DNA of 63,756 nucleotides, the filler included, from Rhabdomonas costata (taxonomy: Eukaryota): assembly GCA_019059605.1 (NCBI GenBank). It is 44 parts of 44 records of this genome, joined end to end, with 100 filler letters (N's around TTAATTAATTAA, not from the genome) between each part and the next. Parts side by side here need not be neighbours in the genome. Positions count along the whole stretch, not along the records: positions 30,494 to 31,844 come from JAHMHO010018513.1; 43 more parts are not named here. One strand, given 5' to 3'. The position numbers and the translations under genes were made by a program. Below are positions 27,591 to 45,830 of the stretch, one piece after another. A model generated the notes under the pieces. The model saw nothing but the letters and a program-made list of their open reading frames with translations, had not been told where the DNA came from and ran no database searches. Positions within the stretch are counted from its first letter, which is position 1. Every line of letters starts with the position of its first letter.

Positions 27591-28325
27591 GTTTTGTGGG
27601 GTCTCATCTTTGTAGAATGAAGATCTCACTCAAGAAGTGGGTCGAGAAGGTCTATTACTGGGCGATGAATAACCCCTTTCAGGCGATTGAGAAAATGTCC
27701 GGCCTCACTCTCCGCACGGTCTCCATGATCATCACGATGATCCTGGAAGTTACAATAAATGACTGTGTTGCAAACCCCACAAACTAGATGGCAGGGGTTT
27801 GGTTACACAGGTTAATGAGGCTGAGTATGGTCACACTCAAAAGGGTCACAAAGGCAGGCAGTCCACTGTGATGCTTGACGTGTGGGGGCGGTGGACCAAG
27901 AATCTGGGAGGTTGGTGGTCTCTCCTTTTAAGAAAATTGCCGCTGACGGCTCTCGTCGTTTTGTCCCTGGAAAGAGCGAGGGGGTACTCCCTTTGGTAAC
28001 TCGTTTTGTGTCTCCGTGTGGCTGGGTTGTTTCATACAGGCTACGCGATTACAGGACCAATTTCTCTGCTTTGTGTTACAAACATATTGCTCTCAATCAC
28101 TCCGAGGCTGAGTTTGTTTACCCTACTCACCATGGTATGCACTCTCAATATATGGAAGGGGCATGGGCTGACATGAAAACACACTTTCGTGCTATGCACG
28201 GTGTGCTCTCCTGCAGGGTTGAGCTCCATCTTTATGAGCGGATGTGGCGCCGAAACGTTCTCTCTTCATCCGCCTGCCCTTTACACTCCATTGTGCTTCT
28301 CCTTGGAAAGAAAGCGTCTCTTTAG
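27591..28325 (+). mobile_element. Degenerate Merlin (IS1595/ISXO2-like) DDE transposase
   Basis: VTQVNEAEYGHTQKGHKGR (cf. VEIDESxFGxRKYxRGR), LPLVTRFVSP, YKHIALNHSEAEFV, HSQYMEGAW, HLYERMWR; one stop, frameshifts and decayed catalytic Asp residues. Confidence 0.85.
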
Positions 28326-28932: not shown

Positions 28933-30750
28933 AACCCACCCCNNNNNNNNNNNNNNNNNNNNNNNNNNNNNNNNNNNNNNNNNNNNTTAATTAATTAANN
29001 NNNNNNNNNNNNNNNNNNNNNNNNNNNNNNNNNNNNNNNNNNGCATCCGGCAGAGCAATTGTCGCTGCAGCTTCCGCTGCAGCTTGGGTTTACAAAGGGA
29101 GGGGGCTGTGCGACAGAACGGGGGCGGGCTGCAGCTCGTTCCAGCAGGCTGCAACTGCGAAGGAAGCGACGCATACCGAAAGCCGTGATCAGCCCAAACA
29201 CCCAAAACGCGAAGAAAAAAAGCACAAAAAACAGCCTGGCAGCCAGGTCAGCCGGAACCACAGCGAAACTGAAGAACAAGCTGATGACAACGATCGAAAG
29301 TATGACCTGAGCTCACACACTTCTAGCGAGGTTAAAGTGCACCACACCGGCTCCCTTCTCATCCGTGTTTGTATGCTCGATTAAGGCACCGTGCTCTGGC
29401 ACTTGAAGCAAGCGGATGAATGAGGTCCGTGAACCTCTTCTTTGGAGCAGAAGGCGAGTACGGCCTCAGGAAGGAAAAGTCCTCCTCAATTCCACCGCGG
29501 TACGTGAAGTCCTTTTGGAGATCCTGTGGCACCGTGGGCTCATAGACACACCGCTCCACCCCAAGCGGCAACGCAGCAGCGACCAGAGTAACCCCACCTT
29601 TGTTCTGTGAGGTCACCGGTGAGTTCTGCACGTTGGCCGGGGTTGGGGAGAAGGAGACGTGCCGAGACGCAGGTGAGCAGGAGGTAAGCGCAGGAGGGAG
29701 GGGCGGATCCTTTCTTAGAGCACTCCTCGGGGAATCACTGCCGAGAGATGAGCAGCAGGTCGAGGCGCACTCATACGAGCTTTCTGGAACCTTTGATCGC
29801 CAAGCAAGGGAGAGGGGGGGGGGCTATGAAAAAAGAGCACGCCGTAATGACAAGAAATGAAAGAGACAAAAATTCAGACCACACCAATCACACCAATGAA
29901 CCAAAAGATGACAAAGATGACAACGAGGCGCAGGAACACCGGAAAAGTACCCAGCAATACCATGTCCACAACAACAGCACCCACAAAAAGCTCCGATTGT
30001 ATTGGAACGCTCTCACAATGCTCGCGTTTTTCACATGATACGTTTATCATATTATTCAGTTCAGATTTCTTTTTTCGATTACTCTCTCCGCTTCTCAATC
30101 TTCCCACCGTTTTGAAAAAACCGCAATGCAACAGCAAGAGACATTGCTTAATGTCGTGCCATTTCGAGCTGCAGGACAGCAACCCCTGCAGCAAACCAGA
30201 AAAAATCTCTAAATGCCTCACAGCCCTCGAAAAACACAAAATGCATACCGACTCAAGGAACCAGCTCACCAACGGCCCGGGGCCCATCCGGAATTTCCCA
30301 CAGCGCATCTTCACCGCGCTTAAAGTCCCGATAAGCTCGGAACCACGCAGATCAGTGGGAGGAACCCAACTCAACCTAAACTCACCCAACACANNNNNNN
30401 NNNNNNNNNNNNNNNNNNNNNNNNNNNNNNNNNNNNNTTAATTAATTAANNNNNNNNNNNNNNNNNNNNNNNNNNNNNNNNNNNNNNNNNNNNAATGCGA
30501 GGGACACCTTTTTGTTTTCATCTTTTCAGTGACGTCTGGTCAATCCACAACCAAAACGAAGACGAAGGAGGAGGTTTAAAATCCCACTGCGAGGACCAGC
30601 AAAAACGTCTTGGTCCCTTTTGTTCACTCGGTGAATACGTTTGAAAAGCTTTTAGCGGAGATCCCGGGGAAGCAGTTTTTGGTCACATTTACGGGGCATT
30701 TACGCGTACACGCGTTAGATTACTTCTTGCAGCAATTCTCATCATGCTAG

Positions 30751-31443
30751 TGGTCACTGCCACTCTGTCAGGCCATTGCCCGCGGCTACGACACCAGCGC
30801 CACCACAGCCCCGAGGCAAGAGTGGTACCACCCCGCAGACCTCCAACTGCTCTCCATCGTTGACGACGACTTCACCGCAGCCGCCAACCTCTCATTCGAC
30901 CTCATGCTCCGGGCGGGACAACTGGACCGCCTGCTGTGCGGCGACCTGGATTTCACCACCCACTCGGTGTGGTGTCCGCCCCACAAGCAGATCCGCTTCC
31001 CCTACCTCCGCACGCCCACACCAGAAGTGTGGCAAATGCTCACCCGCCTCCACAGCGGCAGAGCCCCCGAAGAAAAGCTCTTCAAGAGGACCTCGCGACA
31101 GTACTCAGCGCTGCTCGGGGCACTCACAGAAACCAAGTTGCAGGCTCGCCTCACTTGGCATTCCCTTCGGCGTGGCGGGGCCACCACCCGAGCCCACGCC
31201 GGTCAGTCAGCAGACGCCATTCGCCGCTTCGGGTGCTGGACTTCCGAAAAGGCCGTCACCCACTATATCTTCCCGTGGAGTGACGTCCCCCTCCGCTGCT
31301 GGCGCGCTGGGCCAACTACTTCGGCTCCTGCAGCCCCCACCAGTAGCCCTCCTACACAGCCGCATCCGAAGCGCCGCCGCAAGCCTGCCCGACCTGCCAC
31401 TGGCCACGTCCATCCTCGTCGCGATGGTGGATTTCGCGCATGA
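30751..31443 (+). CDS. Tyrosine recombinase of a DIRS-order retrotransposon (5'-truncated)
   Basis: Frame open from 30751; catalytic set present: FDLMLR (R), PPHK (K), WHSLRRGGAT (HxxR), FGCWTS (W), VTHY (Y). Confidence 0.9.
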   Translation, partial: WSLPLCQAIARGYDTSATTAPRQEWYHPADLQLLSIVDDDFTAAANLSFDLMLRAGQLDRLLCGDLDFTTHSVWCPPHKQIRFPYLRTPTPEVWQMLTRLHSGRAPEEKLFKRTSRQYSALLGALTETKLQARLTWHSLRRGGATTRAHAGQSADAIRRFGCWTSEKAVTHYIFPWSDVPLRCWRAGPTTSAPAAPTSSPPTQPHPKRRRKPARPATGHVHPRRDGGFRA

Positions 31444-31844
31444 TCGACTCCAGCAACTTCACCCTCACCTCTCTGACTGGGCTTCACTTCGCCCAGATCT
31501 TCTTCACTCCCTGCGGGAGCACGACTACCCCTCGCTGGCCGACTACTACGACTCCCAGCCACCCACCTCTGCGCCGCTGGAGTGGAAGCCCCTGCATCCC
31601 GGCCACCGCGAGATCTCGCGCGAGGTGGTGCGTAAGGTACTTGCCCTCCCGTCACAGCTCCGCGCCCCTAAGCTTGTCACTGTCCACCCAACACCCTTCC
31701 ACTCCACGATGTCTGCATGCATCGACAACCTAACCGAGCTCGGCATCATCCATCCCACTTCTTCTCCTGATTCCACCATGTCCCTGTTCCTAAAGCCAAA
31801 GGACGCTCACGCCGCACGCGTAATCTGCGACTTGCGTCCCCTGA
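31300..31844 (+). CDS. N-terminal part of a DIRS-type reverse transcriptase (frame open 30776 to contig end)
   Basis: IDNLTELGIIHP...SLFLKPKDAHAARVICDLRPL matches RT motifs 1-2 of DIRS/LTR-type RTs; cut by the contig end. Confidence 0.85.
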
Positions 31845-33457
31845 NNNNNNNNNNNNNNNNNNNNNNNNNNNNNNNNNNNNNNNNNNNNTTAATTAATTAA
31901 NNNNNNNNNNNNNNNNNNNNNNNNNNNNNNNNNNNNNNNNNNNNTGTGGGTGGGGGGGGAAGGGCCCAATTCAAGGCAAAAACGTGGTTTTTTTTTTGGC
32001 TTGAAGTGGCCAAAAGTGAGGAAAAAATGAAGCAGCGCTCAAGTACAACGCGCGTGGGGTGAGGATGCCAGAAAAAGTTAGTTTGGGGGTAAAACTCGCA
32101 TGAGGGTGGGAAATGGGAGACGGAGCTAAGAGAAAGCGAATTATTAGCCATTTTTTACTGTGTGATGGGGCTTTTTGGAATCGAGCTTTGTCTTATGGCG
32201 AGGGTATAAAAATCAATAGATTTGTATCTAACGTTCGACTTATTTACCTACGGCGTCGCTTCGCTCCGTGTTAACCGCCTGCAGTTGAAAACAAGTCAAA
32301 GGCAAGTAAATTACGTGCCATCACAGGTGGTTAGCGAACTAAGCAAGGAGTCAAATGCTCAAATTAGTCCCGCAAAATATGGTCAACAACGTACCGCTCA
32401 CTTTTAAGGAAATGGCCCTTGCAACTACAACAGCGCACTGTTTTGCGGTAGCAACTCTACCGTAGCTGCGCGTGTATCCTGTGTAACCCATCCTGTGGTT
32501 TGTGCACTTGGAGAAGTTTTCCCATTTCAATGTTGATGCTACAGTTGCATCGGCGTTCCTTTTAACGTCCGGTCGTCGGTCGGTTCCTAAAGACGGCAAT
32601 AAGAGTGCGAAAATTTCGACCCAATCAAACCATTTTGAGGATACGTACAGATATTGGCCTCTGTTGCACAACACCCTTGTTCCAGGCCGCCTTGGATGGG
32701 GCCATATAACCTCTGTCAACCCAGAAATGAACCTTTCTCGTCCCACCTGCCATATGTGCATACGTGCATGTCCTCACCAGTGTTATGTCAAATACTCCGC
32801 TGTACCCACCACCACCACTCCAGACCCCTGAAGGTTACCGGTTCAATGAAGGAAAGGTACACGCATGGGAAGGGAAAGATGGAATCTCACTCACACACAC
32901 CGTATCTTCGTAGGACGGTCTTAAGCCGTTGCAATGGTTTCCCAACAATGACACCGCCTGAACTTTGCTGGCCGGGCCCACCTTTGCCTCCAAGGATATA
33001 AAGCATTTGTGTGACCCCGACGCGGCCACCACCCTGCTTCATGAGGCCAAAAAGCGCGACATTCCCCCTGAATATGGGGCCGACTCCAAATTATGGTCTG
33101 CGGTTTTGAAAATCTTGTTTTTGTATTGTGGCAATACCGCACTGTTTTGATGCGTCTGCTTCCAGTGGCATGGGGTTCTCCTTATGTGGTAAATATTAGA
33201 ATTTGCAGATTAATGGCACGTCACGGAAAAGGTGAACCACGGAAGACGAATGTATTGCATTTAATTTCATCAAAATTCACCCTCTCCACCCCAACNNNNN
33301 NNNNNNNNNNNNNNNNNNNNNNNNNNNNNNNNNNNNNNNTTAATTAATTAANNNNNNNNNNNNNNNNNNNNNNNNNNNNNNNNNNNNNNNNNNNNGGGGT
33401 TTGGGAAGTTCAATTGGATATGCAATTGGTGCTCAACTAGCATGTCCTCAATGTATT

Positions 33458-45001: not shown

Positions 45002-45830
45002 GGTGTTTGTGAAGGTCGACTTGGCCAACGCCTACAACTCCATTGACCGTACCGCCTGTCTTTCTGAACTTCGAAGCCGGTGCCCAGAACTTTTGCCTTG
45101 GGCAAAGTGGTGTTTGTGTGGCCCCAGCGAAGTCTACTTTGGACACCAAGTGATCGAATGCCAGACAGGGGTGCAGCAGGGCGACCCCCTAGCCCCTCTG
45201 CTGTTCTCCATGGGGCTGCAAGGCGCTCTTGAATCTTTGGATACCTCTGAAGGTCTGAACCACACGTGGTACCTCGATGATGGTGGGATGCGTGGTTGCG
45301 TGGCGGCTGTGAGCAAAGCCTTTGACACTCTGCAGAGTCAACTACTGACTCGGGGCTTGCGCATCAACACGGGGAAGTGCGAGTTGTACACGTTCGGCTG
45401 CCCCCATCTGCAAGGCACCCTTGCTGAGGTCCCGATCCCGATCGAAACCAACCGGCACAAGTGGTCCTACCTGGGTGCTCCGCTCCGCGAGCAATGATTG
45501 CAGCAGTGGTGGGCACCCTCCGCCGCATCGAGGCCGTGAACCATGGGGTCCGGCAACGTGCATCCGCCTACCTGTCGCAGGCACTGCAAAAATCCTGCGG
45601 TCCTGCACTGGTGCTTGCCGTATTGAGTTCTTGCTCCAGACCTAGCCATCCTTCTCGATGGTGCTCGAGCTTGCTACCCTTTGTGAGTCAGGGCTTCAAC
45701 CAGACCTTTCTGCCATACTGGGAGTGGAGCAGCTACCAGATTCGGTTTGGAAGCTTGCGACCGTTCCCCTGCGACTCGGGGGTCTCGGCCTTTTCAGTTT
45801 GCGGCGCGTCTGGCCAGCCTTGTTTCAGCG
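45002..45830 (+). mobile_element. Frameshifted non-LTR retrotransposon RT (CRE-like)
   Basis: KVDLANAYNSIDR, TGVQQGDPLAPLLF, WYLDDG, GLRINTGKCE, YLGAP; continues in other frames as LRSC..CRIEFLL and WKLATVPLRLGGLGL. Confidence 0.9.

Follow-up and report, generated by a model that had tools for sequence, protein, structure and literature searches.

The contig G000:C18513 of Rhabdomonas costata carries a tyrosine recombinase (YR) gene running into the start of a reverse transcriptase (RT) gene, which raises the question of whether this genome hosts a retrotransposon with the YR-first gene order known from VIPER and TATE and, if so, to which lineage it belongs. The window that we analysed (the whole stretch of DNA, 63,756 nucleotides) is made of 44 contigs of ~1.35 kb apiece separated by N linkers, adjacency within it has no positional meaning, and the YR-RT fragment is confined to this one contig (window positions 30494-31844; Table 1). 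The assembly behind it is highly fragmented (97 Mb in 104,289 contigs), and the context of the element was drawn from other contigs, the adjoining window pieces being irrelevant. The family to which the fragment belongs is real and structurally resolved here, and its YR-first layout is one already known from VIPER and TATE. It is quite probable that the window holds a fragment of a ~4.7-kb family of DIRS-order YR retrotransposons with, as a whole, the layout and mode of action proposed below.

Table 1. Coordinates, in the window, of the features of the contig that carries the YR-RT fragment.
Feature	Position	Strand	Remarks
Flank, low-copy sequence foreign to the element	30494..30756		Common to C35823 (98%, 262 nt) and C30769 (100%, 127 nt)
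Truncation junction	30756..30757		Flank abuts the middle of the YR gene; window compared with C4575 and C35823
YR catalytic domain and low-complexity tail, N-terminal ~90 aa absent	30757..31443	+	Frame open 30751-31440 (230 codons), stop TGA 31441-31443; TAG at 30748-30750 just ahead
YR catalytic residues	R 30910-12, K 30985-87, H 31159-61, R 31168-70, W 31237-39, Y 31264-66
RT reading frame, +1 relative to YR, spanning the whole YR	30757..31843	+	Open 30719-31843 (375 codons)
First RT motifs, MSLFLKPK ... RVICDLRPL	31778..31843	+	At 31778 and 31817-31843; contig ends within the RT
N run and short linker	31845..31944		Between unrelated contigs; same linker at all joins of the 44 pieces

The original prediction had credited the recombinase with a complete catalytic set, and all six residues could be located. 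Their alignment columns are invariant in 14 of 14 YRs (the window copy and 13 of the 14 relatives found, which are 51-75% identical), so that the family possesses the R-K-HxxR-H/W-Y signature of DIRS-order elements. The Pfam Phage_integrase match of the window YR was weak (E 5e-4, 20.2 bits, under the 27.1 cut-off), and searching the sequences of the PDB with the YR profile retrieved Cre only, at a non-significant score (E 0.49). At the level of predicted structure, the AlphaFold model of a full-length relative (P0004; pLDDT 69.5) had Cre as its best match (E 1e-6) and resembled Cre, XerA and other YRs in 49 matches at E<=0.001. The full YR ORF of the family has ~300 aa. Its N-terminal ~90 residues, missing in the window, form four predicted helices in the P0004 model and are present in C4575 and in metagenome relatives. 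A second, distant YR group of ~30% identity was also observed in the same assembly (G000 C32987, C16666 and C37821, loci L030-L032) and in JGI loci L088 and L089; its +1 frames are likewise stop-free, and an RT lies downstream in L089.

The RT frame extends beyond the window copy, continuing into C51475 and C62805 through 127-nt end overlaps. A Pfam scan of the window RT piece alone gave no RT match; close relatives matched RVT_1 with E values of 1e-15 to 1e-22. The family RT carries LPFGWSWAP and YYDD motifs and is followed by RNase H (RH), for which the Pfam match was weak in the family (E 0.04-0.3) and above the cut-off in the relative P0049. Both frames had been described as stop-free over ~1.1 kb; this is true of the RT frame, whereas the YR frame is open for 0.69 kb. 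Three pairwise comparisons showed that conservation shifts from the YR frame to the +1 frame ~10-20 codons past the catalytic Tyr, and conservation of the RT frame begins ~35 codons ahead of a conserved Met at 31424. Across the YR, no stop interrupted the +1 frame in 9 of 10 segments, where synonymous shuffles predict 1.6-3.9, and neither the +2 frame nor the +1 frames of five gag, RT and RH controls showed such a depletion; with single-segment P values of 0.005-0.13, the open +1 frame is convincing only as a set. A crude check of the RT frame against the YR frame at 11 loci returned +1 in 7, 0 in 1, -1 in 2 and no call in 1, and the three frame-discordant loci have visible indels.

The predicted position of the YR upstream of the RT recurs on single contigs of the same assembly (C70755, C58949, C71262, C32924 and C23535), the first of which is 97% identical to the window across the YR-RT join, and in 5 of the 10 JGI metagenome loci returned (L082, L085, L086, L087 and L089). 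Among these loci, L082 contains the end of gag, the YR, the RT/RH and the 3' end, and L084 has gag followed by the YR. That the adjacency might be an assembly or amplification chimera, or a Crypton-like DNA element nested with a separate retroelement, could be suspected in so fragmented an assembly and on a contig that does hold one abnormal junction, at 30757, but this reading is already refuted and extremely improbable, because the overlap recurs in those five contigs, some with just 50-53% protein identity, and five metagenome loci, and the two frames overlap with the handover of conservation inside the overlap.

As judged from its sequence, the window copy itself is a non-functional, 5'-truncated internal fragment. 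Element sequence starts only at 30757 and the contig ends at 31844, within the RT, whereas C4575 shows the parts absent from the window copy, gag and ~90 N-terminal YR residues. The junction at 30757 is neither an element terminus nor a (GACA)n site, and therefore arose by deletion, by rearrangement or as an amplification chimera. The copy had been called intact-looking, a description that does not survive the replacement of the YR N-terminus by unrelated flank and the interruption of the RT. It had also been called young. In favour of this, its nearest copies are 97-99% identical; against it, several of them carry frameshifts, stops or deletions, and the repeats B1 and B2 (see below) differ at 4 of 95 sites. 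The defects include a stop and several frameshifts in C4575, a frameshift in C70755, a stop in C50929 and, in C51475, an in-frame deletion that removes an RT motif; no intact copy was seen among the sampled genomic copies, which are mostly decayed. Amplification of the family looks fairly recent by these comparisons. A 12-mer from the B end had 41 exact matches, against 14 for its control, and by this count the family would comprise tens of copies at least.

Five contigs overlap in the order C20173-C4575-C18513-C51475-C32855, at 88, 99, 99 and 97%, and tile an element of ~4.7 kb, a length summed from overlapping contigs of different copies. In this way the gag, RNase H and termini that were to be sought beyond this contig were recovered, together with the arrangement A1(~149 nt)-leader-gag-TGA-YR/RT-RNase H-B1(~95)-A2(~149)-spacer(~68)-B2, which is a composite of different copies, the whole element being on no single contig. 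A1 lies ahead of the gag ATG at the left end (C20173), and B1 starts right after the RH stop and is followed by A2, the spacer and B2; in each of the two contigs with both B1 and B2, these repeats are identical at 91 of 95 sites. The element, in this composite, has the split direct repeats A1...B1-A2-B2 of VIPER-like elements, and its repeats are direct instead of the inverted terminal repeats with an internal complementary region of DIRS1-like ones. The gag contains two C-x2-C-x3-H-x3/4-C motifs and a Pro/Tyr-rich tail, and no Pfam family matched it; RT, RNase H and this gag-like ORF1 occur in one element, as in DIRS-order retrotransposons. C20173 holds two elements in tandem with a short array between them (B2-(ACAG)n-A1-gag), and C26274 (L064, reverse strand 165-459) a solo A-spacer-B unit with ACAG repeats on either side, equivalent to SIRE or to a solo LTR.

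The ends of the element point to a specific target. Free right ends abutted (GACA)n in 12 of 23 cases and left ends in 5 of 7, against a background of 0.4% (428 of 116,886 window positions by the ACAG rule, 0.37%). In the fetched loci, 31 distinct B ends ran into A (8, of which 6 by rule and 2 by eye), into ACAG units (12, one of them marginal) or into other sequence (11, including one degenerate ACAG array and many with lower-identity B), while 15 A starts followed B in 8 cases (6 by rule, 2 by eye), (ACAG)n in 5 and other sequence in 2. No telomeric hexamer, the target of TATE, was present in the printed flanks of these 31 B ends and 15 A starts, which have (ACAG)n instead. With a slash marking the boundary, the left end reads ...GACAG/GGAACTC, the right end GGAGGATAG/ACAGACAG and the internal join GGAGGATAG/GGAACTC, as expected for a B/A circle recombining with the array in a shared AG. 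The metagenome locus L082, which comes from another sample and has a YR 57% identical to P0004, likewise ends in GGAGGATAG/(ACAG)n. Some other structures were noticed at these ends. The B/A junction is an inverted repeat, GGAGGATAG ... CTATCCTCC (L045 reverse 675-702; L085, a distant relative, 2209-2247), whose arms are possibly recombinase-binding, and in L061 (C24676, 35-88) two B-like ends face each other, inverted, around a short palindromic spacer. A hairpin is predicted at the B/A junction and stem-loops after the gag stop; neither was used as evidence.

Such an element would work as follows. A transcript running from A1 to B2 would be reverse-transcribed, with the split repeats guiding the strand transfers, and a circular DNA would form whose junction is the same as the internal B1/A2 join, as in the model proposed for Ngaro, PAT and VIPER. 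The YR would then recombine this junction (…GGAT-AG-GGAAC…) with a host (GACA)n array, presumably crossing in the shared AG, and recombination between A1 and A2 would leave solo A-spacer-B units such as the one seen in C26274.

The coding region suggests how the proteins might be made. In five of five junctions (C4575, C13392, C7914, L082 and L084), a single in-frame TGA-CT[C/G] lies between gag and the YR, with gag recognisable upstream in four of them and C7914 truncated there; these junctions are related, two belonging to one subfamily, and do not represent five independent events. An early AUG is absent from the YR, whose first Met is at codon 133-140 or lacking, and its second codon is TTG, ACG, AAG, CTG or ATT. 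In L088, a locus of the second subfamily, the YR frame differs from the gag frame. Gag would be the main product, and the YR would arise in small amounts by translation beyond the conserved TGA-CT[C/G]. Because UGA-C is a leaky stop context, we favour stop-codon readthrough for the YR, to which we give about an even chance. Alternatively, since the second YR codon is one base off AUG in all five junctions, expression by reinitiation there is possible, if rather doubtful. RT/RNase H would be entered in the +1 frame, upstream of or at the start of the YR. Since the RT frame is already conserved ~35 codons before Met 31424, entry probably occurs upstream of this residue, and a frameshift from gag seems marginally the better guess; an internal start at Met 31424 or trans-splicing may serve instead.

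The host is probably a euglenid, judging from one gene in an assembly that also holds foreign AT-rich contigs. Two exons of the ribosomal protein eS1, on separate contigs, matched PDB 6zj3, the Euglena gracilis ribosome, best, ahead of the kinetoplastid entries (91 versus 79 bits and 98 versus 82 bits). This agrees with the non-trypanosomatid host originally proposed and, as far as eS1 tells, places it outside the Kinetoplastida, where VIPER-like elements reside. Neither of two spliced-leader motifs matched the genome, a result uninformative on the host.

We compared the family with known YR elements as they appear in excerpts of the cited reports. CryptonV elements (PMC8869645) are eukaryotic YR elements of which some families are, like this one, microsatellite-specific; unlike it, they are DNA transposons without RT, gag and split repeats. 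The Ngaro-like elements of zebrafish, Xenopus, fungi and Cafeteria burkhardae share with the family split direct repeats, the absence of a methyltransferase, solo AB repeats and a YR with HxxR and Tyr, but their order is gag, RT/RH, YR (PMC8547959, PMC9210276), whereas in our family no YR lies downstream of RT/RH. PAT-like elements (PAT, Toc and Kangaroo) share the split direct repeats and, in Pat1 forms, a gag zinc finger; they differ in having a putative methyltransferase (PMC4157794), absent here, where B1 directly follows the RH stop, and a YR located after the RT (PMC9210276) or inverted.

A quick IQ-TREE run, without VIPER, TATE, PAT or Ngaro as named references and with 69 rows (66 of 115 proteins with RT-core coverage plus three locus translations), recovered the family as one RT clade (SH-aLRT 99) within a wider clade (96), most members of which have LPFGW, apart from gypsy-like RTs. 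The wider clade also holds L089, in which the YR is first, and P0093, a EukProt gene model in which zinc knuckles and RT are followed by the YR. When the N-terminal extensions of 27 distant RT ORFs were screened for a YR footprint, they scored no better than reversed controls, so that within the wider clade only the family, L089 and P0093 have a known gene order. No long RT relative (771-2200 aa) turned up among the 7,999 candidates scored in a profile search, which is weak evidence, a first metagenome scan with the RT profile and a viral-contig scan each gave 0 of 40 candidates, and the cluster names of 20 RT matches were uninformative. In P0102, another member of the wider clade, a C-terminal stretch without Pfam match resembles by eye a DIRS-type methyltransferase.

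One rival reading is that the family belongs to a PAT-like or Ngaro-like lineage whose YR gene was shifted ahead of the RT, its likeness to VIPER being convergent. The YR of P0093 scores against the family profile at E 2e-21 and P0093 has a gag with the family motif, and PAT and Ngaro elements have split direct repeats too (PMC8547959, PMC4157794). However, P0093 is a single example and an unverified gene model, and the family has no methyltransferase after its RNase H, in contrast with the PAT elements described (PMC4157794). We consider such an origin unlikely.

VIPER-like elements are defined by RT monophyly and shared structure, with split direct repeats, and have few matches beyond Kinetoplastida in the excerpted PMC6681497; PMC9210276 describes YR-before-RT retrotransposons as restricted to kinetoplastids, and PMC10161547 mentions TATE-like ORFs in passing for Diplonema. 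VIPER (Trypanosoma cruzi, Bodo saltans, Crithidia and others; PMC6681497) has the same gag-YR-RT/RH order and A1...B1-A2-B2 repeats as the family, and in both the YR and RT ORFs overlap. The VIPER RT ORF often overlaps all of the YR, as here, starting upstream of it in 8 of 15 copies, and in T. cruzi the YR abuts the gag stop in frame, ORF2 beginning at the base that follows the ORF1 stop, again as here (PMC6681497); both features argue for real kinship. The short unique A2-B2 spacer and the solo A-spacer-B unit parallel SIRE, the short solo form of VIPER, and the gag of some VIPER species has a zinc-knuckle-like motif as well (PMC6681497). With TATE (Leishmania braziliensis and others; PMC6681497, PMC12278014) the family shares gene order, split direct repeats, tandem clusters and fixed-phase insertion in a simple repeat, which in TATE is the telomeric GGGTTA instead of (GACA)n.

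The differences concern the RT, the frames and the host. The family has YYDD and LPFGW, whereas VIPER has xxDN and LPMG/IPTG (PMC6681497) and TATE has LIDN (PMC6681497, PMC12278014); the xxDN and LP[MT]G-type pair, a trait that we read by eye rather than a published criterion, has DN in three of three VIPER/TATE reference copies (PMC6681497) and was found in none of the best 150 RT matches of the family, which include gypsy-type RTs, with DD in 114 of 115 aligned matches. The RT/YR overlap is +1 in the family and -1 in 22 of 25 published copies (VIPER 12/15, TATE 10/10), a trait computed here from the coordinates of PMC6681497 and likewise not a published criterion. TATE further differs by a gag without clear CH-box and a YR ORF of up to 980 aa, against ~300 (PMC6681497, PMC12278014). 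The host is kinetoplastid in VIPER and probably a euglenid here, and we did not find (GACA)n targeting described for VIPER in the excerpt of PMC6681497.

The family might even so be a true VIPER-like member, that is, a divergent euglenid sister of kinetoplastid VIPER/TATE, with such elements ancestral to euglenozoans and YxDD kept here while kinetoplastids turned to DN. Besides the shared structure, the simple-repeat targeting that recalls TATE and the ORFs of Diplonema, this is favoured by the nearest Atlas cluster for RT/RH, mostly Euglenozoa among 3 members with phylum and to be taken as a lead only, and by the weak match of P0032 to the hepadnavirus Pol C-terminal domain (E 5.5e-4, below the cut-off; one of seven family proteins), as a hepadnavirus affinity has been reported for VIPER-like RNase H (PMC6681497). 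However, the same domain match occurs outside the family (P0127, P0104 and P0115), and the RT motifs, the make-up of the best RT matches and the overlap frame all speak against it. The motif differences do not exclude a sister relationship, because conserved residues are often changed in VIPER/TATE RTs (PMC12440569). We regard this placement as possible, if not the one that we would choose.

Our preferred reading, held with a slight inclination, is that the family works like VIPER/TATE and is a separate RT lineage, set apart by motifs and frame and not by direct alignment. The family is not filed here as VIPER or TATE, because its RT motifs and overlap frame differ and its RT falls in a clade with L089 and P0093.

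Literature searches revealed no euglenid or microsatellite-targeting YR retrotransposon among the titles listed, Repbase and subscription papers being outside their scope, and those for stop-codon readthrough in DIRS/Ngaro YRs and for Euglena YR retrotransposons found nothing. A far-reaching proposal would be that of an undescribed fifth superfamily of YR retrotransposons, widespread in euglenids as well as in other protists that are poorly sampled (the large metagenomic LPFGW clade), whose YR gene changed between the first and the last position independently of VIPER/TATE. In the present branch a single mRNA would give rise to Gag, to Gag-YR through UGA-CU readthrough and to Pol, the last from a +1 frame that overprints the entire recombinase, and the Cre-like YR would have retained its fixed (GACA)n target while the proteins diverged to ~57% identity; taken jointly, these points make a doubtful whole. 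A euglenid family with the VIPER layout and ordinary RT motifs means either that VIPER-like elements are euglenozoan-ancestral, this being the missing outgroup, or that the layout arose twice, and either outcome bears on the single or multiple origins of YR retrotransposons. With its defined junction and a target that is a simple repeat, the family opens eukaryotic retro-YR integration to direct tests in vitro. Concrete recoding hypotheses follow from the conserved gag-TGA-YR junction and from the stop-free +1 frame, and by its published coordinates the T. cruzi VIPER abuts likewise (PMC6681497, excerpt).

Several features elsewhere in the window deserve mention. A frame of 450 codons without Pfam match spans a whole contig at 40650-41999 (+), and another RT fragment (RVT_1, E 1e-14) at 45003-45494 (+) was unmatched by the family searches. 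At 27879-28322 (+) there is an ISXO2/IS1595-like, Merlin-type transposase fragment (Pfam E 3e-5, below the cut-off); comparable decayed sequence precedes the YR fragment in C23535. Finally, the AT-rich contig at 33396-34746 (-; 29% GC) consists throughout of an intron-less frame for a TPP enzyme (acetolactate-synthase-like) and is probably foreign to the ~50% GC host, deriving from a source such as a bacterium or a giant virus.
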